Shown piece by piece: positions 26,042-43,130 of a stretch of 64,000 nt of DNA; positions within the stretch are counted from its first letter, which is position 1, and each line of letters begins with the position of its first letter. This DNA is from Hyphomonas sp. (lineage in GTDB: Bacteria > Pseudomonadota > Alphaproteobacteria > Caulobacterales > Hyphomonadaceae). The notes beneath the pieces were generated by a model. The model did no database searches. It saw only the letters and a program-made list of their open reading frames with translations, and was not told the origin of the DNA. A program made the translations under genes and the position numbers. The DNA lies in assembly GCF_017792385.1 (NCBI RefSeq), contig NZ_CP051230.1:710827-774826 (forward strand), written 5' to 3'.

Positions 26042-26110
26042 CCTATGCGCGACACGTCAAAATCGTTCCGTCGCGCCAGGTATTTTTTTGCAAGCCCCCC
26101 CCCTGACGGG

Positions 26111-26548: not shown

Positions 26549-26549
26549 G

Positions 26550-27299
26550 TCAGGCGGCCTCGAACACTTCGTCTCTATGGTACTCCAAATACTCTGGAAG
26601 CGGATGAAACTTCTCAGGTGCGGTGGCGATCCGTCCTTCAAACAGACCACGAATATCGTTTGGCACCACAAGTTTCGGTGAGCATCTCACCGTCAGATCG
26701 TTGTTGAGGGTGATGAGTCCTTTGTCGAAAGCTCGATCATGCAGTGAGTTGAGACATATTCCATTTCTGGGGTCCAGTCGAAGCTTCTCATTCTTACTCC
26801 AGGGAATGATGTGACTCGCAATCAGAACTTCCGGCAACTCAATCCCTGTCAATGCACAACGGGAGTTGTAGGCCGACAAAACCATGGCGCGAAATGCCGA
26901 CTGGTTCTTGCGGACCCTCACTGTTCGTAAAGTATCCTCACCTTCGCGAAACTCCAAAGGCTCAGAGTCCTCATCCCTCGTGGGCCATTCACCCTCAGAC
27001 ATGAGGATAGATTGTGCCGATTCTAGAAACCTTTCGGGGTCAGCAAAAAATTCGTCCCATATCTCCCGGTCAGCCTTCGAGGCCCCTTGCAGCCCCGTAC
27101 GGTTTAAAGTCTCATCGAGTGAAGCAAAGTTGGCGAGTTTCATCGCCACTGAACTCGGAGTACGACCGAGCCGTTCGGCGAGTTTGATCACGTCGGGGTT
27201 GCCACGATGCATTCTGCCAAATGGCGTGCGTACATACAGCTCCAAGGCGAGCACTTGGTCGCGCCGCTCCCACGGTTTGCGCTCAGCCAAAGTTACCAC
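26550..27299 (-). CDS. HNH endonuclease, putative restriction/defence type
   Basis: CALTG...ASHIIPW...RNGICLNSLHDRAFDKG...YLEYHR HNH_2-type domain plus an N-terminal helical domain (LAERLGRTPSSVAMKLANF). Lower GC than the neighbours; start uncertain (GTG 27299). Confidence 0.88.
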   Translation of the reverse strand: MVTLAERKPWERRDQVLALELYVRTPFGRMHRGNPDVIKLAERLGRTPSSVAMKLANFASLDETLNRTGLQGASKADREIWDEFFADPERFLESAQSILMSEGEWPTRDEDSEPLEFREGEDTLRTVRVRKNQSAFRAMVLSAYNSRCALTGIELPEVLIASHIIPWSKNEKLRLDPRNGICLNSLHDRAFDKGLITLNNDLTVRCSPKLVVPNDIRGLFEGRIATAPEKFHPLPEYLEYHRDEVFEAA

Positions 27300-27595
27300 C
27301 CAACGCTTGGTGCTCCCTGCTGGTCGCATTCATCCAGATCATATTTAAGCCCGATCCGCTCCACCCATTCGGTCGGTAACTCTCCAGATTGCCAATCACG
27401 CATCATCTCGGCGCGGGCAAAGCCTCCCATGACATGGTCAATTCCGAAACGCCGCACGAAAACGCGGTCGGTCTCTTTCAGCCAGTTCGCAAATTCCATG
27501 ATGGCACACTCATCCTCTGCGGAAACGGAACTCAACCTGAATGAGGTTGCACCGTCAACACCCACCACCGCACAAAACAAGAACACCCTAGACAC
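27293..27595 (-). CDS. Hypothetical protein, translationally coupled to the HNH gene
   Basis: 100-aa ORF whose stop overlaps the putative HNH start; the real start may be the internal MEFANW. No family recognised. Confidence 0.5.
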
Positions 27596-27624
27596 CTGCG
27601 CTCCCTCGCCCCATATCTCGCGGC

Positions 27625-29823
27625 ATGGCTCCTCCCCCTCCCCCGAAAGGCGTTTCCGAAGCGCCCAGCGTGTTTTCGCTTGATGGGTTCGCGCGCGATG
27701 CTGCGGGCGCCCTGCCCTCTGACAACTGGACGCCCCACCGGCCGGACCGCGACTGGGTCAAGCTGGAAGGCGGCAAGCGGTTCAAGGTGCATTCCGAATA
27801 CGAGCCCGCCGGCGACCAGCGCACCGCCATCCCGGAACTGGTCGAGGGCATCCAGGCCGGCGAGCGCGACCAGGTCCTGCTCGGCGCCACCGGCACGGGC
27901 AAGACCTTCACCATGGCCAAGATCATCGAGGCGACCCAGCGCCCGGCCCTGATCCTGGCGCCCAACAAGACACTCGCCGCGCAACTCTATGGCGAGTTCA
28001 AATCCTTCTTCCCGGAAAACTCGGTCGAGTATTTCGTCTCCTATTACGACTATTACCAGCCCGAGGCCTACGTCCCCCGCTCGGATCTCTATATCGAGAA
28101 GGAATCCTCCATCAACGAGGCCATCGACCGGATGCGCCACTCGGCCACCCGCGCCATCCTGGAGCGCGACGACGTCATCATCGTCGCCTCGGTCTCCTGC
28201 ATCTACGGCATCGGCTCGGTCGAGACCTACACCTCGATGACCTTCAAGCTGGAAGAGGGCCAGCGCATCGACCCGCGCGCCGTGGCCGAACAGCTGGTCG
28301 CCAATCAGTATACGCGCAATGACATGAATTTCGTGCGCGGCACCTTCCGCGTGAAGGGCGATGTCGTCGACATCTACCCCGCCCACTTCGAGGACCGCGC
28401 CTGGAAGCTTTCCTTCTTCGGCGACGAGCTGGAAAGCATCACCGAATTCGACCCGCTCACCGGCCGCACCATGCAGAAGCTGCCGGCGATCAAGATCTAC
28501 GCCAACAGCCATTATGTCACGCCGCGCCCGACGCTCAACCAGGCCATCGAGAAGATCAAGGCGGAGCTGAAGCTGACCATCGACCATTTCGAGAAACACG
28601 GCAAATTGCTGGAGGCCCAGCGCATCCAGCAGCGCACACAATATGATCTCGAAATGCTCGCCGCCACGGGCTCGTGCAATGGCATCGAGAACTATTCCCG
28701 CTACCTCACCGGCCGCAAGCCCGGCGATCCGCCGCCCACCATGTTCGAATATTTGCCGGACAATGCCCTCGTCTTCACCGATGAGAGCCACCAGACCGTG
28801 CCGCAGATCGGCGCCATGTATCGCGGCGACTTCTCGCGCAAGTCGACGCTGGCCGAATATGGCTTCCGCCTGCCCTCCTGCATGGACAACCGCCCCCTCA
28901 AATTCGAGGAATGGGACGCGATGCGCCCGCAGACCGTGCACGTCTCGGCCACCCCCGGCCCGTGGGAGCTCGACCGCACCGGCGGCGTGTTCACCGAACA
29001 GGTCATCCGCCCGACCGGCCTGCTCGACCCGCCGGTCGAGGTCCGCCCCGTCTCGAAGGATGGCGCCAACCAGGTCGATGATGTCATGGCAGAGGTCAAG
29101 GCCGTCGCCGCCAAGGGCTATCGATCGCTCATCACGACCCTGACGAAAAAGATGGCGGAAGACCTGACCGACTTCCTCAATGAGCATGGCGTGAAAGTGC
29201 GCTACATGCATTCCGACATCGACACGATCGAGCGGATCGAGATCATCCGCGATTTGCGCCTCGGCGTGTTCGATGTCCTGGTCGGCATCAACCTCCTGCG
29301 CGAGGGGCTCGACATTCCGGAATGCGGCTTTGTCGGCATTCTCGATGCGGACAAGGAAGGCTTCCTCCGGTCAGAGACGAGCCTGGTGCAGACCATCGGC
29401 CGCGCCGCGCGCAATGCCGAGGCCCGCGTCGTGCTCTATGCCGACAAGGTCACCGGCTCCATGCAACGCGCCATGGACGAGACAGACCGCCGCCGCGCCA
29501 AACAGATCGCCTATAATGAGGAACACGGCATCACGCCGACCACGATCAAGCGCGCCGTCGCCGACATCCTCGGCGACCTCGGCGAAAAATCCGACACCCC
29601 CCGCGCCCGCGGCCGCGGCAAGGACAAGGCAAAGGGCAAGACGCGCGGCGTCGCCGAAACAAAAGCCTTGCCACTTGCGGGCGAAAGCGGCCACAATCTC
29701 AAAGCCGTCCTCGCGGACCTCGAAAAACAAATGCGCGAAGCCGCCGCGAACCTGGAATTCGAGGAGGCTGCAAGGCTGAGGGACGAGGTAAAGCGGCTGA
29801 GGGAAGAAGAGCTGGGGCTTTAG
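27625..29823 (+). CDS. uvrB: Excinuclease ABC subunit B
   Basis: [53 protein letters not shown] and C-terminal UVR domain. Confidence 0.99.
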
Positions 29824-30746
29824 GCAGCTTCTAATTGGAGCAAGTGCTCCCCGATTTGCTCGACTGAGGTCATACCACGAATACGAATCTCCTCTTGATC
29901 AGCTTGCTCCTCAAGCGTTTCAAGCGCATCCGCAACATTCCTCATTTGTTTGGCGGAAAATTGAGGGTCATTTTTAGGTGGGATCTGAATAAGCATCTCG
30001 TGATATCTATCCTGCCCCCGATCCCAGTCTGCGTCCCTATTTACTTTTAGTTCCCATAATCTGGATTTTATTCGTCCTGATGAAGCGGAAACACCGTTTG
30101 CTTGCAGCGTTCCAAAATTTGCAACTAGTTTTGAACCTGCAAAATCAATATTCACTTCAGCCCCACGGCGAGCGGAGCGTCGCTTTCTTTCCAACCGAAC
30201 ATCTTCGCTAAAGAATGGCACTAAGCCGACCCGTTTTTCTTTGATATAGTCCTTGATCAAAATCGGCAGTCTATCACCTCCGCCGGTTCTTGGTCTCGCC
30301 TCTTCGACGAGCGTCTCTACTATATCTAGTTCAAATTCTTCTGAATATTCATCAGCATAAAGAGATGACAGGCTGACCATCCACGAGCAGGCAATTTGTT
30401 TCAGACTTTCACCTTCCCCGTTCCGGAGTTCACCAACCTTCACACCAGAAAACGGGACGCTGGGCTCCAGCAGCGCCTCAATTGAGCGCATGGCCAAATC
30501 AGACCGTAAACTCTCTGCAGTCCACTCAATCACCGATATCACAATCTTGGATTGATCTGCATAGAGGCATTTTAGTCGATCCAAGCGGTTAGCAATCTCC
30601 AGATGGAAGCCGTCGCTGGAAACCACAGCCACACCGAACACTAGGCGCTCATACGAGCCCTCAATGGGCTGAATCAAAAGGGGAGCCCACTTCGCATCCA
30701 CCTTAGATCGAAAACTTGGAAACATATCTGAGATCAGAGATGACAT
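29820..30746 (-). CDS. Hypothetical partner of the HipA-like kinase (DUF3037-like N-terminus)
   Basis: [22 protein letters not shown] resembles the DUF3037 N-terminal pattern; low GC; 2 nt downstream of the kinase. Confidence 0.6.
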
Positions 30747-30748
30747 GG

Positions 30749-31564
30749 CTATACCAGATAATTCAATGCTTTAGCCGATTTCGCAGGTGTCTCGGACTTT
30801 CGCTTTTCAAGGAAGTTGTTCAACGCCTTTCGGTCGCCTTCTGTCAAGTATGGCTCAACGCCACTATCTGCGAGCATCGCGGCAATATCTAGAGCGTTAA
30901 TGTCTCGGCAAAGTGCAGAAGAAACTCCGGCATGGTTCGCCTTCTCGTCTTCACTCATGTGAACAGTCAACCATTCAGACAGCCTGTTGATATAGTCTGC
31001 AGAAGGATCAAGATTTTCTGCCGACCACTTCGGACCCGTAAAAGAGTGACCATGATCGATTAGCCAGATAGCATCCTTTCCACCAAAAATCAGGTTTCCT
31101 GCATGCCGGTCGATATTTGCGACCCACGTGTCAAAAGCATATAACTTACCCAAATCTGCCCAAGCGATTAGTTCTTTTAGCAGACCAAGAATTTGGCCGT
31201 GGTCTACGGCCTGCAGTCTAAATCTCAGGCTTGGCGTGCTAACATCCGCACTGGCAAGAACAAGAGGAAGACCATCAACGGTTTTGGGACCTTTTTTTGC
31301 AGGCAGGCTATTATCTCTCACGACTGCCAGATAAGTGATGGGGATGGGCAGCCCTAGAGCAGTGGCGCATGCTGAAGCTAGCAATTCATTACAAAGCTCC
31401 TTCGGCTCAAGGTCCTTCAAGATTGCAGAACAAGTTGTCAAACCCGCCGTAAGTATCTGTCCGCGGTAAGTATCGTTCACATTGCCTTCTTTGAAGGGCT
31501 GAGCGCCAGCCAGAACCGAAGCCAACCGTATGGATTGGTGTTTTGGTATTTCTGTGGTCAACAC
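30749..31564 (-). CDS. HipA-family Ser/Thr kinase
   Basis: Lys (AILK), alphaC Glu (CNELL), catalytic DRHAGN and Mg-binding IDHG motifs intact; low GC; GTG start. Confidence 0.85.
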   Translation of the reverse strand: MLTTEIPKHQSIRLASVLAGAQPFKEGNVNDTYRGQILTAGLTTCSAILKDLEPKELCNELLASACATALGLPIPITYLAVVRDNSLPAKKGPKTVDGLPLVLASADVSTPSLRFRLQAVDHGQILGLLKELIAWADLGKLYAFDTWVANIDRHAGNLIFGGKDAIWLIDHGHSFTGPKWSAENLDPSADYINRLSEWLTVHMSEDEKANHAGVSSALCRDINALDIAAMLADSGVEPYLTEGDRKALNNFLEKRKSETPAKSAKALNYLV

Positions 31565-31712
31565 TCCCCCCCTATTTGAACCTACATCTATCTTTCATGG
31601 CTCGATCTGTCTATCATAGATTGCTATGCGGACGGGGTTCATACACCCTTAATTTCTGAAAGATATCTGCCCACATATGGGACCGCCCAGCACCGCACCA
31701 CTTCGCCGTGCC

Positions 31713-31995
31713 GTAGCAGGCGGGTTAGCGAAGCGTAACCCGCCTGCCGCCCCTTCGTCCTTCGACCCCGGCTTTCACCGGGGCAAGCCCCGCTCAGGAT
31801 GAGTCCGCTTCTTGCGGCTGGCTCCGCGCTCCAACGGCGGGAGACCCCGGCATGCGCCGGGGATGCGGACTTTGCGGGGATAGAGGTTTGCACTCTCCCC
31901 CCGCAGGCCCCTGCGGCGGCAGGGGCCCATCTCCAGCTCCCTCCTCAAGCGCTTCAGGCGATGGCGGGAGATGGATACCTGCCTTCGCAGGTATC
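31713..31995. repeat. Cluster of REP-like palindromic elements (left block)
   Basis: GTAG-GCAGGCGGGTTA/TAACCCGCCTGC hairpin (31713-31747); GTCCTTCGA...CTCAGGATGAG type; CCCCGGCATGCGCCGGGG; GATACCTGC-CTTC-GCAGGTATC. Confidence 0.8.
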
Positions 31996-32009
31996 TCCGG
32001 GCTTGAATT

Positions 32010-32600
32010 ATCGCCCTCACCATCCCCCCACCACACTCGCCGCACCGGCCCGAGATGGGCCCCCAGATGGCCTGTGGCCATCGGGGGTGACGACCTTTTG
32101 GGAGGAGAGATCGGCCTTTCCCAATCCGACGCACAGCCCCTCATGCGATGATGGTGACCTGCCCTTCCGGGAGCCGGATCAGGTACCGTTCTGGTCGGAG
32201 AGGCAGGGACAGGATGGGCCTTGCGGGAGACAGACGGTCCCGCATGGCCCTAGGCAGGTCAGGCCAGGGTGAGCCTGCGAAAGCAGGTAGGGAACCCGCC
32301 TCGTCCGGCAGCCCGGGAGACATCCCCGGATGGACTTCCCGTGTGAAAAGCACGGAAGACCCGTTCGTGCGGCGCCGGTAACGAAGACCCGGGACCATGG
32401 GCCCCCATGAGGGTGTCCCGCCGAAGCCCCTGTCCGGCGCGGCGGGCGGTAACGCTCCATTCCGTAGCCTTGTTCAGTTCCAGGCGGAGCGCCACGGCGC
32501 CCGCCGCGCCATGGCTCTGTTGGGGCCGGTTGTTGGATCCCCGGATGGCGCGCGCCAGTCCGGCCAAACGCGTTGGAGGAAACCTCGCAGACCCCCACCT
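32010..32600. other. ~590-nt highly structured non-coding element (ncRNA or foldback element)
   Basis: Many perfect stems, e.g. TGACCTGCC/GGCAGGTCA, CCTGC-GAAA-GCAGG, and a 13-bp GGCGCGGCGGGCG/CGCCCGCCGCGCC; no credible CDS. Confidence 0.6.
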
Positions 32601-33015
32601 GTCCTCCCCCTTGCAGGGGGAGGAACGCAGACAGCAGCCGCCTTGCTTGAGGGGCCGTTCTCCCCCTTGCAAAGGGGGAGTTAGAGGGGGATCGCGATGG
32701 CATGGCCATCGCCCTTCGCCAGCTCAGGCGGAGGGGGGTGAGGCAGGACAGGCCCGGCGCAGCGATACCCGCCAACCCCGTCCCGCCTTCAACCCTGTCA
32801 TCCCGGAAAATCCGTCAGGATTTATCCGGGACCCAGACACTGGGTGCGGGATGACAGGAACGGGACGATACAATCCGTCCTTCTGCTCCCCCGCCTGCGG
32901 AGGAGGTGGCAGGCGGCGCAGCCGGCTGACGGAGGGGGGATTCCGGACCCGCGGCACCAGCCCCCTCCGCCTCGCGGGGCTCGGCACCTCCCCCGCATGC
33001 GGGGGAGGATTTCCC
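32590..33015. repeat. Cluster of REP-like palindromic elements (right block)
   Basis: CCTCCCCCTTGCAGGGGGAGG, CTCCCCCTTGCAAAGGGGGAG, TGTCATCCCGG...GGGATGACA, CTCCCCCGCCTGCGGAGGAG, CCTCCCCCGCATGCGGGGGAGG. Confidence 0.8.
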
Positions 33016-33016
33016 C

Positions 33017-34375
33017 CTATGCCATCAGGGCGCCGGCGATCAGGTAGAGCGCCACGGCCAGCCCGCCGGTGACCAGCGCATAGGGCATCTGGGTGCGGAC
33101 ATGGTCGATATGGTCACAGCCCGCCGCCAGCGAGGCGATGATCGTCGTGTCGGAGATCGGCGAGCAATGGTCGCCGAAGACACCGCCGCCCAGCACCGCT
33201 GCCAGCACCAGCGAGGGCGGCAGGCCGAGCGCGGCGGCGAGCGGCATGGCGATGGGGATCATGATGCCATAGGTGCCCCAGCTGGTGCCGGTCATGAAGG
33301 CGGTCACGCCCGCCACGACAAACAGCACGGCCGGCACGATGACCGGCAAGACGAACTGGGCCGCAACGCCCGACAGGAAGGCCCCCGTGCCGAGCACGCG
33401 CAGACTGTCGCCGAGCGCGATGGAGAGGAAGAGAATGGTCACCACAGGCACCATTTCGGCAATCCCGGCAAAGCCGCGTGCCTGCAGGCCGCCCTTCGGA
33501 AAGGCCTTGCCCAGCGCCAGCAGCCCGGCCGCCACGGCCATGGCCAGGCACACCGCCCAGAGGATCGACTGGCTGCCGCTGCCGGCCAATATGTTGCCGC
33601 CGCCGGTCCAAGCCATGAAGCCGAGCGCGCCGGCAATCATCACGGCCAGCGGCAGCCACATATATATCGCGCGCGTCGGCGCGACGGGCGCGTCTGCTTC
33701 GGCCTGCACGCCGGCGCCCTGCCCCGCCGTTTTCATCGGGCCGAAGACCCGGCCGGTGAACACGGTGGCATATACGCCGGCCAGCGTCAGGAGGGCATAG
33801 AAATTCCACGGGATCGTGCCCGCCACCACGCCGATCGGACTGTCAAAGCCATAGGGCTCGACCAGGCCGAGCGCATAGGCGCCCCAGCCATTCAGCAGGA
33901 TCAGCGCGCTGATCGGGGCCGAGGTGGAATCGATGATATAGGCGAGCCGCTCGCGCGACAGGCCATGCGCATCGAACAGGCGCTGGCCCAGCACGCCGCT
34001 GCTCAGCAGGCTGACATTTGTCTCGACGAAGATGGCTGTGCCCGCCAGCGCCGGGGCCAGGGCAGCGCGGCGCGGCGTCGATGCCAGGCCCCGCCGCATC
34101 AGGCCGCGCACCAGCGCCTCGACGCCGCCGGAATCGCGCATCCAGGCGATCAGCGCACCGATCAGCAGGCAGAACAACAGGACGCGTGTATTGCCGGGGC
34201 TCTCGAACACGCCGACCGCACGGTCAATCGCGCCCAGCGCGCCGAGGCCCGGATGAAAGCCGGCAATCAGTGTTTCCGAGGCCAGCAATGCCAGGCCCAG
34301 CGCGGCATAGACATTGCGCGTCGCCAGCGCGACCAGGATCGCCAGCACGGGCGGCAGTATCGTCAGAATGTCCAG
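33017..34375 (-). CDS. Na+/H+ antiporter NhaC family protein
   Basis: RERLAYIIDSTSAP, FMTGTSWGTYGI, GGVFGDHCSPISDTTIIAS...HIDHVRTQMPYA. The start is extended to CTG 34375 behind a perfect AAGGAGG; the track start is GTG 34348. Confidence 0.9.
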   Translation of the reverse strand: MDILTILPPVLAILVALATRNVYAALGLALLASETLIAGFHPGLGALGAIDRAVGVFESPGNTRVLLFCLLIGALIAWMRDSGGVEALVRGLMRRGLASTPRRAALAPALAGTAIFVETNVSLLSSGVLGQRLFDAHGLSRERLAYIIDSTSAPISALILLNGWGAYALGLVEPYGFDSPIGVVAGTIPWNFYALLTLAGVYATVFTGRVFGPMKTAGQGAGVQAEADAPVAPTRAIYMWLPLAVMIAGALGFMAWTGGGNILAGSGSQSILWAVCLAMAVAAGLLALGKAFPKGGLQARGFAGIAEMVPVVTILFLSIALGDSLRVLGTGAFLSGVAAQFVLPVIVPAVLFVVAGVTAFMTGTSWGTYGIMIPIAMPLAAALGLPPSLVLAAVLGGGVFGDHCSPISDTTIIASLAAGCDHIDHVRTQMPYALVTGGLAVALYLIAGALMA

Positions 34376-34469
34376 GGCCCGGCCTCCTTGCGTGCACGCG
34401 GCTCACCTAAGCGCATTCGCCGCCCGATGCCCAGCGCCCTGTATGACGGGCGGGGGCGCGGCCGGGATT

Positions 34470-34498
34470 TTGACCCAGGATTCGGGCCCGGTCACAAA
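34470..34498 (+). promoter_or_regulatory. Candidate sigma70 promoter of the large ncRNA
   Basis: TTGACC (34470-34475)-N17-CACAAA with a GANTC (34479-34483) in the spacer; the -10 element is weak. Confidence 0.35.
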
Positions 34499-34519
34499 AC
34501 TGTGAAATTCTCGTCGGAA

Positions 34520-35075
34520 GGGACTCGACTCAAGGGCAGTTTTGGGGAATCATTTCGGTTAGCCAACGAAATCCGGGCGGGCGCCAACCCGCTTCAGGAG
34601 CGGCGGCAAGTACATCGCCCTCGACGGAAGGGCCGGGCCAGAAGCAAGGCTGCGAGAGCAGCGGCGCAAAGGGCCAGGCGGGACCGCGAGACAAGGCAGG
34701 CGATGTCTTCGATGAGGGGAGCTAGACCCCGAGCGAAGGGCTGTAGGACGTGACCGGAGCGCGATCCGAAACACGTCACCAAAGGAAAATCCGAAAGGAT
34801 TTCCGGCGGTTAGGTCAGGCTGACGCGAACTCGCCCGTGCGAATGAGGGAAAGTCTGATCCGGGAGACGGCCTTGGGCGCAAGCCCGCTCGCAAGATGTG
34901 TGGCGGCGACCAGACCGGATCCTGACAAAGGGCAAAAGAAAAGGCCCGCTTTCGCGAGCCCGATCCTTGCCCGGTGTCAATCGAGGACCGACAACGAGTG
35001 CATGCACAATGTCTCGATAGTCTGATTCGAAGCACCAGAGAAGGTGTGATCGTCCGCGATCACACCTTCTTTTTT
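34520..35075 (+). ncRNA. Large ornate non-coding RNA, ROOL-like candidate
   Basis: About 540 nt with no credible CDS. Nested helices: GAATCA/TGATTC, ATCCGG/CCGGAT, ACATCGCC/GGCGATGT, GACGTG/CACGTC, TCAGGCT/AGTCTGA, GGGCAA/TTGCCC. GNRA tetraloops on the + strand and its own terminator. The 5' end is approximate. Confidence 0.75.
35039..35075 (+). terminator. Rho-independent terminator closing the ncRNA
   Basis: AGAAGGTGTGATCG-TCCG-CGATCACACCTTCT 14-bp perfect stem plus a T-run; no + strand CDS upstream needs it. Confidence 0.92.
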
Positions 35076-35210
35076 GCGCGCGGCGGTTTTCCGGAATTCG
35101 CCTCTTGCGCGAGTCCGGCCGCAGACGCCGCCGCAACCCCTGCCCCGTCTCGCGCGTAGTCTCTGCGAACCCGATCCCTGACACGCCCCATCCCGAAAGG
35201 CCCCGCCCCC

Positions 35211-36188
35211 ATGCTCGCCCTGCTCGAACCCGTCTTCGTGTTGATCGGCGTGTGGGGCCTGTTCGCCGCCCTCGCGCCAAAGCTGCGCACGGAAATCTGG
35301 TGGATGCGCATCTGGGTCTATGGCCGGCTGCAGACCTGCCTCATCCTGTTCGCGGCCCTCGGCCTGTATCTCGCGCTCTATCCCGTCGGCGACATCGGCA
35401 CGGCCACCCTGCTGATGGCCTATGCGGTCGGCCTGTCGATCTGCGCGCTGGACATCTGGCCCTATTTGCCCGGCCGGAAGCGCGAATTGCGCCGTGCCCG
35501 GCCCGGCAGTCCCGGCACCCCGCTGTCCGTGCTGCTGCTGAACGTGCTGCAGGAGAATGAGGACCATGCTGCCGTGCTCGCCCGCATCCGTGACAGCGAT
35601 GCCGACATTGTCTTCCTGTCGGAAACCAATGCCCGCTGGCGCGCCGCCCTTGCCCCGCTGGAGGCCGATTATCTCCACACCTTCCTGCTCGACAAGGAAG
35701 ACCATAACGGCCTCCTCTTCTATTCGCGCCATCCCGTCACACGCACCCAGGAACGTTATCTCTGCCAGGATCATGTGCCGTCCCTGACCATGGACATCGA
35801 TCTGGCCGGCCGCGAGGTGCGCCTCTACTGCATCCATCCGCGCCCCCCCCGCCCGCGCGATGACACGCAACATCTCGATGACGAATTGATGATCGTGGCC
35901 GATGAATTGCGCGAACAGCACCGCCCTGCCCTCGTGATCGGCGATTTCAACGAGGTCGGCTGGTCGTGGATGGTGAAGGAGTTCAAGCAGCATGGTGGCC
36001 TGTGCGATCCGAAACGGGGCCGTGGCCTGTACAATTCCTATGGCGCGAAGTCGCCCTTCCTGGCCTGGCCGCTGGACCATGCCTTTGCCACGCCGCACTT
36101 CGATCTGACGCGCATCTGCCGCCTGCGTCCGTGCGGATCGGACCATTATCCCATCCTGTACGGCTTCCACCTCCGCCCCGGCCCTTGA
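35211..36188 (+). CDS. Endonuclease/exonuclease/phosphatase family protein with N-terminal TMs (YafD-like)
   Basis: LLNVLQEN, FLSETN, IGDFN, PLDH and GSDHYPI motifs. Confidence 0.9.
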   Translation: MLALLEPVFVLIGVWGLFAALAPKLRTEIWWMRIWVYGRLQTCLILFAALGLYLALYPVGDIGTATLLMAYAVGLSICALDIWPYLPGRKRELRRARPGSPGTPLSVLLLNVLQENEDHAAVLARIRDSDADIVFLSETNARWRAALAPLEADYLHTFLLDKEDHNGLLFYSRHPVTRTQERYLCQDHVPSLTMDIDLAGREVRLYCIHPRPPRPRDDTQHLDDELMIVADELREQHRPALVIGDFNEVGWSWMVKEFKQHGGLCDPKRGRGLYNSYGAKSPFLAWPLDHAFATPHFDLTRICRLRPCGSDHYPILYGFHLRPGP

Positions 36189-36221
36189 TCCCTGTCAGAT
36201 TGGCATGCCCGGAAATCGCGT

Positions 36222-36237
36222 GTAACCTCTGCTTAAC
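36222..36237. promoter_or_regulatory. CtrA-binding site upstream of the caspase-domain lipoprotein
   Basis: GTAA-CCTCTGC-TTAAC, one mismatch to TTAA-N7-TTAAC, 20 nt before the ATG. Confidence 0.55.
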
Positions 36238-36256
36238 CAATACCGAGGGGACGGTG

Positions 36257-38362
36257 ATGCGGCGAATAAACTTGGTTTCCAATCTGTGCGCCCTGGCGCT
36301 CGCCGCCCTGCTCGCGGCCTGCAGTGCGCAGCAGGACGCGGGTCAGGCCTATGATCCGGAGCCAGAGCCGGACCCGCAATTCGAAGTGCCTCCTCCTCCG
36401 CCGCCGCCTCCGCCTCCGCCCATGATCGACTCCCCAACGGAGCCGGAGCCGCCCCGCGCATCGGCGCCCGGCAGCAGCCCCAACCCTGGCCGCGACAGGC
36501 CGGGCGTGTCTCCGGAACTGCCTGGGGACATCGCGGATGAAGACGAGAACGACGAGCCCGGCAGCCCGAGCCTTGGCTTCGGCGAAGCGTCCGATCTGGA
36601 AGAGTTGCGGGAACTCCATGCCGATAATCCGGCATTTCTCGAGTGGCTCGACAGCTTTGCCGACGGTGCAGAGGACCTTGCCGCCCTCGAACCTGCGGCC
36701 GGCGCATCCGACACAGAATTCTGCCAGGCTGAAATCTCGGCCCCCCGCACCCTGCTGATCACCTGCGACGGCGCCGGATCCGGCACCTACTCCCAGGCCA
36801 CGCATCGCATCGAAGGGGACCTGACCGAAACCCTCGACCTGCTCGCACGCGATCTTGCCGGCGAAGGTCTGGAGGTAGGCCTGTTCGACCGCCAGCTCTG
36901 TTTCTGGAGCGAGACCATCTCGATCGACGGGTCAGACCTCGTCATGAATTGTCCCGATTGGGACTTCCGCTACTCGGAGCTGGCCGCCGAAGCCGCTGCT
37001 GCATTCGACAGCGGCCGGATCGCACACCATGCGCCGGAACAGATGGTGCTCGGGCAGCCCTATTTTCTCGAAATCGCGATTCAGCCAATCCAGAGCAACA
37101 CGACAGAAGCTGAAGTTGACGACTCCCTGCGCGCCGTGATGGGAACGGGCTTGGCTGCTGACAGTTCGGAGCAGGCCTTTTCGCTGGAATTCGACACGGT
37201 CCGCGCAAGTCAGGTCATGATGGCCAATGCCACGGCCGACGCGTTTGACCTGACCCTGATGACCCCCGAAACCCAGCCCGTCGTGCCGGGAGAGCCGACC
37301 TTGTGGCAATGGAAAGTCGTTCCGCGCTCGGTCGGCACACCAAATCTGACGTTCACCGTGTCCCAGCGCGTCTCGGTCGAGGGTCAGAACCTTGCAAAAG
37401 TGGTCAAGACCATTCCCGTTTCGGTGAATGTGGTGTCACTGGACGTGCTGCTCGCCGATCCCGGCCCGGCAGCAGATGAAGCCGCGGATGCGCGCCGGTC
37501 AGCTGGATCGGACGAAGACACGGTGATGCCGCTGACCGGGTCCCTCACCGCGCCGCCCTCCGGCGTAAGCGATACCACGGAAATGAGTGTTGCCAACATT
37601 GCGAACGCCGCGTCCGGCCTGCTGCCGGATACGGAAATTGCCGGATGCACCTGGGTCAGTGGTCCCAATCCGGACCGGCAGGCCATGGTGCTCAGCAATC
37701 TGGCTTACGCCCCGCCGGTCAGCCGGCTTTCCGTGACGCATGAAGACGGCGACCGGATCACCGACGCACTGTCTGCGGTCGGGTTTTCGGTGCTGAAATG
37801 TCAGGACCTTGGCCAGCGCCAGACGGTTCGCGCGCTCAGCCTGCTTGGCCGCATGTCGAAAGCCCGCAAGGATGCCGGTGCCTATCCGGTCACCTTCTTC
37901 TATTATTCCGGCCATGGCGTGAATGTCGGCGGCACCAATTTCATCCTGCCCACGGACATTCCCGGCGCGTCTCCCGAAGAAATCCGGGATTTCGGTGTCA
38001 GTTTCGAACAGATATTCAATCGCGTGTCGACAACTGTCGCGCCCACCTCGTTTATCGTGTTCGATGCCTGCCGGACTGTCATGGATGATGAAAGCCGGGG
38101 CCTGATGCGGGCCTATAGCCCTGTAGGCTGGGCGTCCGGCGTGTTCCAGGCCTTCGCGACCGAGCCCGGCAAGACCGCTGCCGATGATGGCGTCTATTCC
38201 GAGGAGTTGTCCGTCCTGATCCGCACGCTCGATGACCCGGCCAATGTCGTGTTCAAACGTGTCCAGGATGCGGTCGCAGCGCGCACGGGACAAAAGCAGA
38301 GACCGGTCTACACCGACGGCACGACGGGCGGTGATTTCTACTTCATCCAGGACGCGGACTAG
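36257..38362 (+). CDS. Lipoprotein with Pro-rich linker and C-terminal caspase-like (peptidase C14) domain
   Basis: Lipobox LLAA|C, poly-Pro tract, FFYYSGHG and IVFDACR dyad; start trimmed from 35966 to ATG 36257. Confidence 0.85.
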   Translation: MRRINLVSNLCALALAALLAACSAQQDAGQAYDPEPEPDPQFEVPPPPPPPPPPPMIDSPTEPEPPRASAPGSSPNPGRDRPGVSPELPGDIADEDENDEPGSPSLGFGEASDLEELRELHADNPAFLEWLDSFADGAEDLAALEPAAGASDTEFCQAEISAPRTLLITCDGAGSGTYSQATHRIEGDLTETLDLLARDLAGEGLEVGLFDRQLCFWSETISIDGSDLVMNCPDWDFRYSELAAEAAAAFDSGRIAHHAPEQMVLGQPYFLEIAIQPIQSNTTEAEVDDSLRAVMGTGLAADSSEQAFSLEFDTVRASQVMMANATADAFDLTLMTPETQPVVPGEPTLWQWKVVPRSVGTPNLTFTVSQRVSVEGQNLAKVVKTIPVSVNVVSLDVLLADPGPAADEAADARRSAGSDEDTVMPLTGSLTAPPSGVSDTTEMSVANIANAASGLLPDTEIAGCTWVSGPNPDRQAMVLSNLAYAPPVSRLSVTHEDGDRITDALSAVGFSVLKCQDLGQRQTVRALSLLGRMSKARKDAGAYPVTFFYYSGHGVNVGGTNFILPTDIPGASPEEIRDFGVSFEQIFNRVSTTVAPTSFIVFDACRTVMDDESRGLMRAYSPVGWASGVFQAFATEPGKTAADDGVYSEELSVLIRTLDDPANVVFKRVQDAVAARTGQKQRPVYTDGTTGGDFYFIQDAD

Positions 38363-38433
38363 CCCCACCCCGGAATCAAAACACCGCCGAACCCCGTTCG
38401 GCGGTGTTGAAGTCCGGGTCTGGTCCTGCCGGC

Positions 38434-39048
38434 CTACGGGCTGACGGGAACCGGCTCCTTCGGCGCTTCGGGCTGAGGTGGCGGCGGGGGAACATCATGC
38501 TCCACCAGCGTGTCTTCCGGCGCCGGCGCAGAGCCGGACACGGCGCAACAACGCACCTGCATCTCGAGCACACGGCTGTTGAAGCGACATTTCTCGTCAT
38601 TGATCTCGCGCAGTATGGACATGCCGCCCGCCCGGTAAGTGTAGCGGGTCTGGGTGCAACTGGTCAGAGCATAGCCCGGCCGACAGGTTCCGGTGTCGGA
38701 ATTCTGGATGGTGCGGGTTTCGCACTGGACTTCCTTGCTGTTGGCCGCCTCCGCCAGAGCGAGGGCGGCGTCAGCCTGTGCCTGCGCCGCGTCTGCGCTG
38801 GCCTGTGCCCGCGCAGCCGCCTCCGTGGCGTTGTCGGCCATCGAGCGGGCCTGAGACAGGCGCATGTCCGTGTCTGCGAGCGCCGTCGTGTTGCCATCGA
38901 TTTCCAGCTTGAGCTTGCACACCGCCTCGCCGGCCTTGTCCGGATTGGCGCAATATTCTGCCACTGACTGTTCAGCAGGTATCATCTGACAGCCTGCCAG
39001 AAGCGCGGTCGACAGGACCGCCCCTGCAAGGAATTTCCCACTACCCAT
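38434..39048 (-). CDS. Lipoprotein with alanine-zipper coiled coil and Cys-rich C-terminal domain
   Basis: Lipobox LLAG|C, AAARAQASADAAQAQADAALALAE, six C-terminal cysteines ending in RCC. Confidence 0.75.
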   Translation of the reverse strand: MGSGKFLAGAVLSTALLAGCQMIPAEQSVAEYCANPDKAGEAVCKLKLEIDGNTTALADTDMRLSQARSMADNATEAAARAQASADAAQAQADAALALAEAANSKEVQCETRTIQNSDTGTCRPGYALTSCTQTRYTYRAGGMSILREINDEKCRFNSRVLEMQVRCCAVSGSAPAPEDTLVEHDVPPPPPQPEAPKEPVPVSP

Positions 39049-39140
39049 ATTGTTCTCCATTTCTGGCCCCAGCCATTTTGGCCGATATTCAAGGGGCACA
39101 GACCCGGAGCGTCAATGCCGCTCCCGCCTGAGGGGAGTCC

Positions 39141-39977
39141 TCAGGCTTTCAGTTTGTAACCCGACCGGAACATGAGCCAGACAGCAAAGATACCGGCCAC
39201 AGCCAACAATCCGGTTACCCAGACCCCGACAATCACGGAGCTGTTGGCGACCCCGAGGAAACCATACCGAAACCCGTCAATCATGTAGAAGAATGGATCA
39301 AGCAGGGCCATTGTGTAGAAGGGCTCGGACATCACCTTGATGTCGTAGAAGGTGCCGGACAGGAAAGTGAGCGGCACGATCACGAAATTGGTGACCGCGG
39401 ACAAATGGTCGAACTTGTCCGCCCAGATCCCGCCAATGGCGCCAAGTGCGCCGAGTGCAATCGCAGATGTAACGCTGAACCAGAGTATCGGCCAGAGATG
39501 GACGATGGTGAGGTCCGCCAGACCGCTGATCTGGATCCCGATGGCAGAAATCAGCGCAACGAGCAGCCCGCGCACAACCGATCCGCCAATGAAGCCGATG
39601 GTCAGCTCCATGGGCGACAGCGGCGGCATCAGGAAATCGACATAGGTGGAATTGAACTTGGCCTGCACGAGGCTGGAACTGGTATTCTGGAAGGCATTCT
39701 GAAGGATGGCCATCACGATCAGGCCCGGCGCCAGGAACTCGATATAGTTCAGCCCCTCGAAATCACCCATCAGCCGGCCACGGTCGCCGAAAGCAAGCTT
39801 GAACACCGTCATGAACAACAGGGTTGTCACCACGGGCGCAAACACGGTCTGCATCCACACCTTCATGAACCGGCCGATTTCCCGCTTGAATAGGGTCCAA
39901 AGCCCCAATCCATTGATACTGCCATACTGGCGGACGTTTCGCTGGGCGGAGCTCTGGGCGGCGGCTGTATCGGTCAT
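39141..39977 (-). CDS. ABC-2 type transporter permease (YadH-like)
   Basis: GLWTLFKREIGRF...FLAPGLIVM...PLTFLSGTFY...YMIDGFRYGF; divergent from gcrA. Confidence 0.92.
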   Translation of the reverse strand: MTDTAAAQSSAQRNVRQYGSINGLGLWTLFKREIGRFMKVWMQTVFAPVVTTLLFMTVFKLAFGDRGRLMGDFEGLNYIEFLAPGLIVMAILQNAFQNTSSSLVQAKFNSTYVDFLMPPLSPMELTIGFIGGSVVRGLLVALISAIGIQISGLADLTIVHLWPILWFSVTSAIALGALGAIGGIWADKFDHLSAVTNFVIVPLTFLSGTFYDIKVMSEPFYTMALLDPFFYMIDGFRYGFLGVANSSVIVGVWVTGLLAVAGIFAVWLMFRSGYKLKA

Positions 39978-40056
39978 CCGCGCTATCTAGGCATGATTGG
40001 ACGAGTCTGCGAGGGGCAATGGACGGAAAAGTCACGGAAATTCGCGTGCCTGTTTT

Positions 40057-40108
40057 TTGTCCACAGGTCAGCACAGTTAACCACAAGATGTAGAAAGCCT
40101 GTGGAAAG
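40057..40108. promoter_or_regulatory. gcrA promoter region: DnaA-box-like sites and a CtrA half-site
   Basis: TTGTCCACA (40057-40065), TTAACCA (40077-40083), TGTGGAAAG (40100-40108); Caulobacter gcrA is DnaA-activated and CtrA-repressed. Confidence 0.6.
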
Positions 40109-40252
40109 CGTGCGCTGCATGTTGTGTTTCGTTTCGCTGCTGATACGATATCTAGGTGCTGAGCGGATGGCGCGTAGCGAGCCATCTCAATATATAGGGG
40201 CTGAAAGATCGTTGGTGTTAACGATCTTCATCCGAGCTGGGAGACATTGACC

Positions 40253-40780
40253 ATGTCCTGGACCGAAGAACGGGTAAGCGTGCTGAAAAAACTCTGGGCG
40301 GAGGGCCATTCCGCTTCCCAGATCGCCAAACAGCTGGGCGGCGTGACCCGCAATGCCGTGATTGGGAAAGTGCATCGTCTTGGCCTGTCCGGTCGTGCGA
40401 CGCCGTCCCGTCCGGTCAAGCGCCCGCCGCGTCTGGCGCGTCCGAAGCCACGGGTGATGCCGGACGGCAGCGTCAAGGTGGCCGCCCCCGCGGTGCCGGA
40501 AAAGACCGAGACCCGTCCGATCGAGCGCAGCACCGAAGTGATGGCGCCGCTGCCTCCGCTGCAGCAGGCCGATGGTGAGCCTGCTTCGATCCTCACGTTG
40601 CGGGACTCCATGTGCAAATGGCCGATTGGCGATCCGGCCGATCCGAAATTTGCCTTCTGCGGCCGGAAGGCTGATTGCGGTCCCTATTGTTCCGAACATG
40701 CCAAGGTGGCGTTCCAGCCTGCGCGCAAGCGCGACAGCCGGAAAGGCGCCTATGATTATGTCCGTCGCATCGCCGGCTAG
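40253..40780 (+). CDS. gcrA: Cell cycle regulator GcrA
   Basis: MSWTEERV...SASQIAKQLGGVTRNAVIGKVHRLGL; CKWPIGDP...FCG...YCSEH. Confidence 0.97.
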   Translation: MSWTEERVSVLKKLWAEGHSASQIAKQLGGVTRNAVIGKVHRLGLSGRATPSRPVKRPPRLARPKPRVMPDGSVKVAAPAVPEKTETRPIERSTEVMAPLPPLQQADGEPASILTLRDSMCKWPIGDPADPKFAFCGRKADCGPYCSEHAKVAFQPARKRDSRKGAYDYVRRIAG

Positions 40781-40808
40781 ACCCGGCACGCACCCTTGCG
40801 TCTGACAG

Positions 40809-40845
40809 GAAGCCCCCGAAGTCATTCTTCGGGGGCTTTTCCTTT
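40809..40845 (+). terminator. Terminator after gcrA
   Basis: AAGCCCCCGAAG-TCATT-CTTCGGGGGCTT followed by T-rich sequence. Confidence 0.85.
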
Positions 40846-40897
40846 CCTGGCAGACCCGCTCTCGCCTTCCTGACGAAACGCCTTTAAGCCGGTTTCC

Positions 40898-42238
40898 GTG
40901 ACTGCTCCGACAACCCCCGACACGATCTACGCCGCCCCGGCCGAATGGGTCGCCACCGGGACCGGCGCGCAGGGAAACCTGTTCCTGACCGGGCGGGCGG
41001 GAACCGGCAAGACAACCATGCTGCGGAAATTCCTGGCTGGCGCGGGCGACAAGGCGATTGTCCTGGCCCCGACCGGCGTGGCGGCCATGAATGCCGGCGG
41101 CCAGACAATCCATTCCTTCTTCAAGTTTCCGCCGCGCCTGATTGAACCGACCGACATCAAGCGCCTGCGCTCGACGCGTCTCGTGAAAGCCATCGACACG
41201 ATGATCATTGACGAGATCTCCATGGTTCGGGCCGACATGCTGGACGCCATCGACAAGAGCCTGAAGCTGAACCGCGCATCCAAGAGGCCCTTTGGCGGGG
41301 TACGCATGATCCTGTCGGGTGACCTGCACCAGTTGCCGCCGGTGGTATCCGGTCAGGAAGCGCCGATCCTGCAGGAACGTTATGGCGGCAGCTATTTCTT
41401 CAATGCGCCGGCCTTTCGCGAGGCGGAATTCTCGCTGCTGGCCCTGAAACATGTGTTCCGTCAGGCCGAGCCGCGCTTCCTGGCCCTGCTGGGAGCCTTG
41501 AGGACCGGCCGTGTCACGCCAAATGACGAGGCCGTTCTGCGCGGTCTGGTCAGTTCGAAATCGGCGGTCGAAGCGTCCGAAAGCCATGTCGTTTTGACTC
41601 CAAACAATGCCAATGCGTTTCGGATCAACCAGGCGCGGCTGGACGGGCTGACCACACGGTCCCAGACCTTCGAGGCGGATGTGCAGGGCCAGTTCGAGGA
41701 AAAGGCCTTCCCGACGGAAGCCGACCTGGAGCTGAAGGAAGGCGCCCGGGTCATGCTGATCAAGAATGATCCGGAAGGGCGCTGGGTGAACGGCACGCTG
41801 GCAACGGTAGCCGGCTTTTCGGGCAGCCGGGTGATCGTCGAGATTGACGATCATGTGTACGAGATCGAGCAGACGGCCTGGGAAAAGTATCGCTACGAAC
41901 TGGATCCCGAGACCAAGAAAGTGAAACGCGAAGTTGTCGGCACATTCAAACAGGTGCCGTTGCGGCTGGCCTATGCCGTCACCATCCACAAGGCGCAGGG
42001 GCTAACCCTGGACAAGGTGTTCATCGATTTCGATTCCGGCATGTTCGCCCACGGACAGGCCTATGTCGCGTTTTCGCGGGCGCGTTCGCTGGACGGATTG
42101 TCAATCAGCCGGCCCTTGCGGCCCCGCGACCTGGTCCTGGACCGGGATGCCTTTGCGTTCGGCAAGCTGGAAACCATCGAGGACACTGACGCCTATCTGC
42201 TGGCGCGGTTTGCCAAGTCAGACGATACGCTGATTTAG
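40898..42238 (+). CDS. Pif1/RecD-like SF1B DNA helicase
   Basis: GRAGTGKT, IIDEISMV, GDLHQLPPV, VFRQ, YAVTIHKAQGLTLD, GQAYVAFSR motifs. Confidence 0.92.
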   Translation: MTAPTTPDTIYAAPAEWVATGTGAQGNLFLTGRAGTGKTTMLRKFLAGAGDKAIVLAPTGVAAMNAGGQTIHSFFKFPPRLIEPTDIKRLRSTRLVKAIDTMIIDEISMVRADMLDAIDKSLKLNRASKRPFGGVRMILSGDLHQLPPVVSGQEAPILQERYGGSYFFNAPAFREAEFSLLALKHVFRQAEPRFLALLGALRTGRVTPNDEAVLRGLVSSKSAVEASESHVVLTPNNANAFRINQARLDGLTTRSQTFEADVQGQFEEKAFPTEADLELKEGARVMLIKNDPEGRWVNGTLATVAGFSGSRVIVEIDDHVYEIEQTAWEKYRYELDPETKKVKREVVGTFKQVPLRLAYAVTIHKAQGLTLDKVFIDFDSGMFAHGQAYVAFSRARSLDGLSISRPLRPRDLVLDRDAFAFGKLETIEDTDAYLLARFAKSDDTLI

Positions 42239-42323
42239 GCCATTTCGGGGCATTAACCTTTCGCTCACAATCCGGCCGCATTCTGACGATCTCGTGTACG
42301 CCGCCAGCAGAGAAAGGCACGTC

Positions 42324-42461
42324 ATGAACGCAGTCCTTGAACGCCGTCAGCGCCGCTGTCTCCTGAGACAGGGCATGGGCACAGCCAGCGAGCGCAAGTC
42401 ATTGTCGCAGGTGGCCGCTCATCGCCGCCGCATGCGCATTCCCGGCAGCGGCGGAAACTAG
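42324..42461 (+). CDS. Possible 45-aa basic small protein
   Basis: AAAGG RBS, ATG 42324, MNAVLERRQRRCLLRQGMGTASERKSLSQVAAHRRRMRIPGSGGN; stop overlaps (CTAG) the stop of the convergent gene. Confidence 0.3.
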   Translation: MNAVLERRQRRCLLRQGMGTASERKSLSQVAAHRRRMRIPGSGGN

Positions 42462-42688
42462 GCCAGTTTCCGGATTTCCTCCGAGAGCTGGCGCTCCCGG
42501 TCGGTGACGATCTCTTCCAGAACGCGCACGCGCTGTTTCAGATGCGCCACTTCGTCGAGCACCCGCTTCATTTCCTGATCGGAGGCCTTATCGTGTTCGC
42601 GATCTGCCTTCATCTTCAGATAATTGTTCAGCACACCCGCGCCGACGCTTATCATCACGATGATGACGACCATTTCAAAAACGCCCAT
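42458..42688 (-). CDS. Small TM + coiled-coil protein (PspB-like)
   Basis: N-terminal TM then LKQRVRVLEEIVTDRERQLSEEI. Confidence 0.7.
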   Translation of the reverse strand: MGVFEMVVIIVMISVGAGVLNNYLKMKADREHDKASDQEMKRVLDEVAHLKQRVRVLEEIVTDRERQLSEEIRKLA

Positions 42689-42774
42689 GTGGCAACTCCC
42701 ATTTATATCGTTTTTCGATATATCGCGCTCGCGATCAGATTACAAGCCAAAATGGCGCGTGTCGCGCGCTGCGC

Positions 42775-42966
42775 TTAGCCGAGGCGATCAATCTCGCGGC
42801 GCAAACGGCGGTCACGATCCAGGATGATTGATTCCAGCGTACGGACACGCTCCGACAATTGAGCGATCCGGTCATCCTCGCGCGGCGCAGTCTGCACTGG
42901 TCGACGTCCAGAACGGGTCATCATGATGATCACGACGACGAACAGGATGAAAGCGAAGAACGACAT
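42775..42966 (-). CDS. Small TM + coiled-coil protein (PspB-like), paralog of the next gene
   Basis: MSFFAFILFVVVIIMM...LSERVRTLESIILDRDRRLRREI; start trimmed to ATG 42966. Confidence 0.7.
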   Translation of the reverse strand: MSFFAFILFVVVIIMMTRSGRRPVQTAPREDDRIAQLSERVRTLESIILDRDRRLRREIDRLG

Positions 42967-43130
42967 GGCGGGGCTCCTTTTCTGACAAGACCATCTTTCC
43001 GAAAGCCAGTCGTTTGGAGCTCCCCCGTTTCTTGGATGGATCCGCAATTCGCCGGATGCACCGCTCTCCTGAACTTATCGATAATCAATATGTAGGAAGC
43101 GATGAATACCTGTTCAAGAAGAAAACCGGA

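Follow-up and report, generated by a model that had tools for sequence, protein, structure and literature searches.

The window analyzed here is a stretch of 64,000 nucleotides of Hyphomonas sp. (RefSeq assembly GCF_017792385.1, contig NZ_CP051230.1, positions 710,827 to 774,826 of the forward strand), and positions below count from its first nucleotide. We rather favor reading positions ~34558-35076 of its plus strand as encoding a structured non-coding RNA (ncRNA) of about 520 nt, very abundant and not catalogued before, that acts in trans. The parts of this reading differ in strength. That the locus encodes a real stand-alone structured ncRNA is close to certain, and that this ncRNA represents a new RNA family is quite likely. 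The odds that it serves in trans as a structural RNA or as part of a ribonucleoprotein (RNP) are marginally better than even. The locus has the general features of a stand-alone ncRNA gene, namely a candidate promoter, a terminator, confined conservation, a discrete abundant transcript and no conserved open reading frame (ORF), and it shows the compensatory substitutions beyond controls that are expected of structured RNAs. An earlier note, made from the sequence alone, had proposed a large structured ncRNA on the plus strand that stands alone and ends in a terminator. Transcript contigs, conservation and covariation uphold that proposal, and every sequence string quoted in the note lies where it was said to lie.

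Transcript Abundance and Ends

Logan contigs of 12 RNA-seq and metatranscriptome runs cover only 34560-35046, and none lies in the flanking nhaC or EEP genes. The word depth of the RNA is 13,946 in X29, about 7,000-12,000 in X33, 2,625 in X36 and 186 in X26. Pieces of mRNA from the same organism across window positions 25001-45000 have a word depth of 2-9. With contig depth taken as a rough measure of abundance, the RNA accumulates about 1,000 times above the neighboring mRNAs, and a difference on this scale, some three orders of magnitude, is robust. In other transcriptomes a second clade, that of locus L016, is expressed likewise.

The 5' end is set by a contig of the L016 clade (X65) that ends at L016:10411 and runs straight into the reverse complement of the SMART template-switch oligo, so the RNA begins there. 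Through the alignment, in which L016:10430 corresponds to window position 34537, this end falls at 34556-34560; the CGG found at the junction could be part of the oligo. The window contig that reaches furthest 5' begins at 34560. Contig 5' ends are heterogeneous (34560-34588), a spread that we attribute to assembly. On the 3' side the contigs reach 35046, within the 5' arm of the terminator, and conservation stops right after the T-run at 35076. On the basis of the oligo junction, the contig ends and this stop in conservation, the transcript is delimited as follows, and its length is probably about 520 nt rather than the 540 nt first estimated.

~34558-35076, plus strand: RNA of ~520 nt, with its 5' end at ~34556-34560 and its 3' end at the terminator U-tract, placed by contigs, template-switch-oligo junction and terminator.

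No reading frame stays open across the clades, and short insertions or deletions (1 and 2 nt) occur at scattered places in the alignment. The RNA is not translated, and the earlier description of the interval as a gap without a coding sequence was right.

The contig of depth 13,946 in X29 continues past 35031 into CCATGGCGCTGTGGAACCACTCCGATCCAT, which is 5S rRNA-like. It is most likely a chimera of two very abundant RNAs.

Homologs, Conservation and Distribution

Homologs of the RNA are found at 25 loci. They comprise 18 distinct full-length sequences and one partial sequence, fall into about six clades and are 74-100% identical. They come from Hyphomonas pacifica, Hyphomonas beringensis, one metagenome-assembled genome (MAG) and marine metagenomes; the window itself is placed in Hyphomonas by its EEP homologs. 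Mean column identity is about 89% across species whose flanking intergenic DNA is unalignable. Conservation is bounded by the promoter region on one side and the T-run of the terminator on the other, and within the RNA a core of 125 nt is invariant and its junction nucleotides are conserved.

A strict motif scan of 185,579 species genomes placed the RNA in three, namely H. pacifica T16B2, H. beringensis 25B14_1 and a MAG of the Alphaproteobacteria; this count is a lower bound, as the genome motif GATGARRRRAGCTAGAYYYYGA is too strict and misses clades with GA-CAGGGG. A second motif retrieved 18 JGI/TARA metagenome contigs, all 18 of them confirmed homologs (17 full-length, one ended by the contig edge). 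A further TARA contig, L034, was reached through a spurious antisense ORF of 166 aa (protein match P0057 among 5.8 billion proteins), a search that gave no distant relatives. The RNA has no match in plasmids or phages by distant-mode blastn, and none in IMG/VR viral contigs by pattern scans that included the broader pattern GTGACCGGAGCGCGATCCGAA. With nhmmer --max, no homolog was found at the distant EEP loci L007-L012, whose EEP proteins are 42-49% identical. An nhmmer profile detects no second copy in the window or at any locus.

Seawater metatranscriptomes hold more distant kin. Short unitigs of X31, X32 and X33, with a word depth of 10^4 to 3x10^5, match parts of the RNA only, at 80-90% (segments 34633-34683, 34714-34787 and 34975-35030), and then enter related but different sequence. 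Their source is relatives of the RNA that are diverged and of extreme abundance, and neither motif scan retrieved these. In these relatives the basal helix of domain 2, ACAUCGCC/GGCGAUGU, is replaced by ACGUCGCC/GGCGACGU. The AGCUAGA loop is kept, with CCUG in place of CCCC as the 3' strand of its stem. GUGACCGGAGCGCGAUCCGAA is unchanged and the core of the 3' domain is retained. One relative has 172 unlike nucleotides in place of domains 4-5.

At 34897 the window carries an extra T (AAGATGTGTGG) compared with every spanning RNA-seq contig of 99% identity or more and with the near-identical loci L020 and L032. The T is shared by L024 and L034. Either the predicted bulge in which it lies is truly polymorphic or the assembly of the window is in error here.

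Predicted Fold and Covariation

For the plus strand of 34520-35080 the minimum free energy is -243.9 kcal/mol (z = -4.9 relative to dinucleotide shuffles), and none of 100 shuffles folds as well. For the minus strand of the same interval z is -3.5. A curated structure of 120 pairs was set on the unbiased MAFFT alignment A4, with the poorly aligned interior of domain 4 omitted; for the variable domains 4a and 4b, each clade was folded and the folds compared. In the 120-pair structure 98.0% of the cells are paired, against 36-45% in controls in which the structure was slid along the alignment, and seven pairs are changed on both sides, against 0-2. The covariation score is 0.096, compared with 0.018-0.032 in the slid controls, and is reached by none of 500 shuffles. 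The fold consists of six or seven hairpin domains; compensatory changes back several of them, and the sub-domains fold alike in all clades. The domains are arranged from 5' to 3' as follows.

34562-34607, plus strand: domain 1, with GCC/GGC, CG/CG and UCC/GGA helices around the hairpin GGGCGG/CCGCUU.

34612-34706, plus strand: domain 2, a long irregular arm of ACAUCGCC/GGCGAUGU, CUCG/CGAG, GGCC/GGCC, GC/GC and GCUGC-GAGA-GCAGC.

34707-34738, plus strand: hairpin CUUCG...GGGG-AGCUAGA-CCCC...CGAAG, with a 7-nt loop (34720-34726) invariant in 18 sequences.

34747-34777, plus strand: hairpin GACGUG/CACGUC with the inner hairpin CGGA-GCGCGA-UCCG, whose invariant loop (34759-34764) holds GCGC and CGCG.

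34784-34804, plus strand: hairpin GGAAAAUCC-GAAA-GGAUUUCC, with the tetraloop GAAA, GCAA, CUCG or CUUG by clade.

34813-34860, plus strand: domain 4a, a variable hairpin with the base GGUCAGGCU/AGUCUGAUC, a clade-specific middle and the conserved tip YGC-CNNGU-GCR.

34861-34923, plus strand: domain 4b, an irregular hairpin closed by GGG/CCU, the closing pair of which goes from G-U to G-C in two sequences.

34930-34972, plus strand: domain 5, GGGC/GCCC around the invariant A-rich strand AAAAGAAAAGG and the hairpin GGC-CGC-UUUC-GCG-GCC.

34973-35036, plus strand: domain 6, the 3' domain, with GGUGU/GCACC, UCGAG/UUCGA, GAC/GUC, CGAG/CUCG and GCAU/AUGU.

Compensatory changes are spread over these domains. 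In domain 1 the pair 34578/34591 covaries (C-G to U-A in four sequences) and 34575/34594 goes from G-U to A-U. Domain 2 has four covarying pairs (columns 100-143, 102-140, 103-139 and 116-125). The pair 34748/34776 occurs as A-U, G-U, U-G and U-A, and as G-C in L034. The shape of domain 4a is kept from differing sequence (GCAA/UUGC vs. GUAA/UUAC, and a ninth pair that is U-A or C-G). For the interior of domain 4b there are two competing folds, one of them with a local GGGC-GCNN-GCCC hairpin, and covariation favors neither. In domain 6 all four variable positions stay paired (columns 457-512, 465-506, 471-501 and 483-489). This domain also holds the invariant 10-nt palindrome GUGCAUGCAC (34998-35007), and the AGCUAGA loop includes the self-complementary tetramers AGCU and CUAG.

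The earlier note had drawn a fold from the window sequence, and its local helices fared better than its global ones. The helices ACATCGCC/GGCGATGT, GACGTG/CACGTC, TCAGGCT/AGTCTGA and GGGC/GCCC (34930/34969), the GAGA hairpin, the GGAAAATCC-GAAA hairpin and the terminator are kept in 17-18 homologs. Wherever a position varies in TTTTGG/CCAGAG, in ATCCGG/CCGGAT or in the end pair of TGACA/TGTCA, the pairing is lost and no change compensates. The proposed TCGAGGAC/GTCTCGA helix has one breaking position (A opposite C in three sequences), while a competing nested fold of the 3' domain stays paired. GAATCA/TGATTC never varies among the homologs. The nested closing helices proposed for the molecule as a whole are not supported. 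Their 5' arms (34540-52) lie 5' of the RNA end at ~34556-34560, and these positions are probably promoter DNA and not RNA. Among three proposed GNRA loops the GAGA hairpin stands, whereas the GAAA loop turns into GCAA or CUYG and the GCAA loop into GCAG, GCAU, GCUU or GCGU.

Promoter Region and Terminator

Conservation 5' of the RNA is ordered as CACAAAACTGTGAAATTCT, 7 variable nucleotides, GACTCGACTC, 10 variable nucleotides and TTGGGGAATCATTTCGG. The following elements bound the RNA.

34493-34511, plus strand: invariant 5' block CACAAAACTGTGAAATTCT, which 16 of 17 homologs share unchanged and from which L024 differs by a single G in place of A; DNA further 5' is unalignable.

34525-34553, plus strand: candidate promoter, TCGACT (34525-30), 17-nt spacer, AATCAT (34548-53); 34532-34541 are variable.

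35037-35076, plus strand: intrinsic terminator with a 15-bp stem, a 6-nt loop and a U-tract.

The block CACAAAACTGTGAAATTCT contains the inverted repeat CACA-N4-TGTG centered about 61.5 bp before the mapped 5' end, and is a putative regulator-binding site or UP-like element. TCGACT-N17-AATCAT is tentatively assigned as the promoter of the RNA. It is favored because its spacing predicts a start at about 34560, in agreement with the mapped RNA end. It has 8 of 12 consensus positions and was not called by a consensus promoter scan; alphaproteobacterial -10 elements are atypical (PMC8407463). An extracytoplasmic function (ECF)-like promoter, GAAAT-N17-CGAC, with a start at about 34537 is less likely than this sigma-70-like one, since the RNA ends map to 34556-34560.

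The terminator stem covaries (U-A to G-C). It is largely rewritten in L034 and is also changed in the L006 clade, while the whole 3' domain that lies 5' of it is invariant in both.

Comparison with Known RNA Families

None of the 4,227 models of Rfam 15 reaches its gathering score within the 64 kb of the window. When the filters were made permissive and the cutoff set at E<=10, 34350-35250 yielded terminator-like or chance fragments only, and so did the homolog loci L034, L030, L017 and L031. No covariance model of ROOL (RF03087), GOLLD (RF01998), OLE (RF01071), HEARO, raiA or IMES-1 to IMES-4 matches, and RNase P, transfer-messenger RNA (tmRNA), 6S, signal recognition particle RNA, group I and II introns and rRNA gave no match by covariance model or ARAGORN. 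No published description of the RNA was found in open-access full text. The earlier note had offered an undescribed class of large ncRNA as its fallback, and this is the reading that the evidence favors.

ARAGORN finds no tRNA or tmRNA in the window. With neither a tRNA nor a family at Rfam gathering score, the RNA is the only structured-RNA gene detectable in the 64 kb.

Several known RNAs nevertheless offer likenesses. The closest is OLE (RF01071, ~610 nt, Bacillota), which is likewise large, multi-domain, very abundant and stand-alone, with long invariant stretches. OLE is encoded beside the genes of partner proteins, one of which (OapA) is membrane-bound; here a membrane-anchored EEP protein is the constant neighbor. 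OLE forms a homodimer via a palindromic kissing loop (PMC12286853), and the present RNA has two invariant loops with palindromic tetramers. The two RNAs differ in that there is no sequence or profile similarity, the phylum is another, oap genes are absent and EEP also occurs without the RNA.

With ROOL the RNA shares its size class, and with both ROOL and GOLLD an ornate multi-hairpin architecture, GNRA loops and A-rich strands. A plausible analogy is quaternary assembly through kissing loops and A-minor contacts. ROOL is typical of Bacillota, Fusobacteria or rumen metagenomes, where it often lies beside tRNAs or in prophages. The RNA differs from ROOL and GOLLD in having no covariance-model match at E<=10, in being chromosomal and not associated with a prophage or tRNA, in its alphaproteobacterial host and in its narrow known distribution.

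The raiA motif/ModT and the smtA motif are also independently transcribed, abundant and structured, and were found by intergenic conservation (PMC11109978). The RNA is over two times as large as raiA, has no homology to it and occurs in other taxa and another gene neighborhood. A last likeness is the very high depth in seawater metatranscriptomes, up to a word depth of about 3x10^5 for the diverged relatives; IMES RNAs are said, by Weinberg et al. in 2009, to be abundant in marine metatranscriptomes. The models of IMES-1 to IMES-4 do not match, however, IMES RNAs are much shorter, and the RNA has a cultured host genus.

Genomic Neighborhood

By Pfam, the RNA locus is flanked by an NhaC-type antiporter gene at 33017-34348 (minus strand) and by an EEP-family gene at 35211-36188 (plus strand), as the earlier note had it. 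The EEP gene lies about 130 nt 3' of the RNA on the same strand in the window and at every homolog locus long enough (23 of 24), including those of H. pacifica (L003) and the metagenome contig L006. The genes and elements on this side are listed below.

35133-35158, plus strand: ECF-type promoter-like element of EEP, GCAAC-N16-GCGTA, outside the RNA and conserved in all clades.

35211-36188, plus strand: EEP-family gene (Pfam PF03372), encoding four N-terminal helices followed by the EEP fold; the sole constant neighbor of the RNA.

36200-38362, plus strand: gene of a Peptidase_C14 protein of ~720 aa, whose caspase domain is C-terminal and whose long N-terminal part is unassigned; it follows EEP in RNA-bearing loci.

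The AlphaFold2 model of the EEP protein has a predicted local distance difference test (pLDDT) score of 93. In a fold search TDP2, sphingomyelinases, CNOT6L and nocturnin score about equally, so that the matches are those of a generic EEP fold and do not narrow the substrate. The Peptidase_C14 (caspase-like) gene comes next wherever a locus extends far enough. Its protein has weak matches only, below the cut-offs, to PADLOC 'caspase' and NCBIfam 'caspase, EACC1-associated type', and neither PADLOC nor NCBIfam assigns a known defense system to the neighboring genes.

The element GCAAC-N16-GCGTA also precedes EEP in RNA-less Hyphomonas loci (L001, L004/L005), about 68 nt before the EEP start. 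Its conservation suggests that EEP may be under an alternative sigma factor. Because it is found in loci that lack the RNA, EEP would be transcribed on its own and the RNA gene would be a separate module of about 590 bp. EEP without a nearby RNA is seen in the related Hyphomonas loci L001/2 and L004/5. A complementarity between RNA positions 34685-34705 and the EEP promoter region at 35134-35154 (81% over 21 nt) was dismissed, since this DNA lies 5' of the likely EEP start; by eye, and against one other clade only (L022), it looked poorly kept.

The 5' neighbor of the RNA differs among loci and is nhaC, uvrB directly, a 304-aa gene, or cargo of insertion sequence (IS) and DUF8370 type. The interval between uvrB and the RNA (window 29823-34500; L003, L014, L024, L025) is a variable hotspot of zero to about four genes. 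Its cargo includes nhaC, the 304-aa gene, a 487-aa gene, and an IS plus DUF8370/8371, while the RNA-EEP-Peptidase_C14-ABC2 side is constant. In L003 the IS adjoins the RNA.

Further along the window, a long ORF holds a perfect tandem repeat, (GGCTCT) x 12.5, at 44913-44987. RNA contig depth is raised locally there (117, X33), with contigs that fit two places.

Proposed Role and Alternative Explanations

We propose that the RNA would act in trans as a stable structural RNA, not as a leader or a base-pairing small RNA (sRNA). It would be one of two things, the RNA core of an RNP or a homo-oligomer made of RNA only; an RNP with a protein partner is at least as likely as self-association. If it is an RNP, the membrane-anchored EEP protein would be the sole partner candidate that the genomic context offers. 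If it is an oligomer, the AGCUAGA and GCGCGA loops, and perhaps GUGCAUGCAC, would make symmetric kissing contacts between copies. These three self-complementary elements are invariant in 18 sequences, and most are also present in the diverged relatives. In OLE and GOLLD homo-oligomers the symmetric kissing bridges are palindromic tetranucleotides in loops (PMC12286853), and it is the resemblance of the invariant palindromic loops to such bridges that leads to the self-association hypothesis. A homo-oligomer held by kissing loops is a tentative suggestion by this analogy, and we think it rather doubtful. In a bolder version, which we would call unlikely, the RNA founds a new class of large bacterial RNAs and self-assembles through AGCUAGA, GCGCGA and GUGCAUGCAC into symmetric particles that are RNA-only, or RNA-scaffolded and membrane-associated.

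Five observations weigh against the proposal of an abundant trans-acting structural RNA or against parts of it. First, the contigs are strandless, so the plus strand is assigned indirectly, from the terminator, from about ten positions with predominant G-U pairs, which can form on the plus strand only, and from the purine skew (the plus strand is purine-rich across 34520-35080). Second, one 615-nt contig of X67 passes through the promoter block and 72 nt further 5' (L016:10472-10544), with a depth equal to that of the RNA, and may reflect either carried-over DNA or a longer transcript that is rare. Third, 85 of the 120 pairs (71%) never vary and there are only about six clades, so that much of the structure is thermodynamic prediction plus conservation. 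Fourth, the adjacency of RNA and EEP may be inherited synteny, since EEP orthologs occur without the RNA. Fifth, the argument from palindromic loops is post hoc, and the loops could bind a protein or make intramolecular contacts.

The alternative that survives best is that the RNA regulates in trans by titration, as a protein sponge or RNA-polymerase-binding RNA of the CsrB, 6S or Ms1 type, as a base-pairing sRNA or as an RNA sponge. The very high abundance, the Rho-independent terminator with its U-tail and long invariant single-stranded stretches such as AAAAGAAAAGG would all suit such a regulator. We consider it improbable, as there is no repeated loop motif of the sponge type and no 6S-like rod with a central bubble, the Rfam 6S models do not match, and 520 nt with a multi-domain fold is unusual among base-pairing sRNAs.

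A giant cis-acting leader or riboswitch that controls EEP by termination and read-through would account for the position of the RNA, which lies directly 5' of EEP on the same strand at every locus long enough to show it, with its terminator about 135 nt before the EEP start codon. This position is offset by the conserved EEP promoter-like element between terminator and gene, which RNA-less genomes have as well, and by an abundance at least 1,000 times that of EEP mRNA. The terminator stem is also rewritten in two clades without a compensating change in the 5' anti-terminator candidates, and an aptamer of about 480 nt would lack precedent. A leader is thus a poor candidate.

Little better can be said for a new large ribozyme, self-processing or acting on another substrate, which we rate as very improbable. 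The invariant 125-nt core with its conserved junction nucleotides, a size comparable to RNase P and group I introns and the heterogeneous contig 5' ends might be read in its favor; no ribozyme family matches, however, no exon-like context flanks the RNA, its contigs show no joints, and assembly explains the uneven ends.

There is scant probability that the RNA is a GC-rich divergent homolog of ROOL that forms ROOL-type nanocages. The earlier note had suggested ROOL from an order of motifs, which is a lead only; the similar size, the many hairpins, the GNRA loops and the A-rich linkers would fit. At the level of sequence and structure profile this reading is effectively refuted. Neither the window RNA nor the four homolog loci tested match ROOL at gathering score or E<=10, the tRNA or phage setting of ROOL is missing (no tRNA in 64 kb; no phage, plasmid or viral match), and the host is an alphaproteobacterium. 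That there is no functional RNA gene here, but a decaying mobile-element end, a pseudogene or a foldable GC-rich mRNA of a small protein, is most unlikely: the variable hotspot just 5' and the adjoining IS in L003 would fit, whereas the ~89% mean column identity amid unalignable flanks, the compensatory changes, the extreme expression, the lack of a conserved ORF and the single copy per locus do not.

Significance

Large ornate RNAs without a known function are, to our knowledge, rare in bacteria (OLE, ROOL, GOLLD, raiA and HEARO), and each of those we know of has so far opened new biology, such as RNA nanocages, membrane RNPs and guide RNAs. The RNA described here has practical advantages. 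It is absent from Rfam 15, exceeds the neighboring messages about 1,000 times and is seen in many public transcriptomes and metatranscriptomes, and the cultured hosts H. pacifica and H. beringensis make genetics, pull-downs and cryo-EM feasible. In marine metatranscriptomes it further marks a block of very abundant reads that current annotation does not explain. If self-assembly is true, natural RNA quaternary structure of the OLE, ROOL and GOLLD type would extend to Proteobacteria. If the RNA does found a new class, that class would rank with the most abundant non-ribosomal transcripts in certain marine Alphaproteobacteria.

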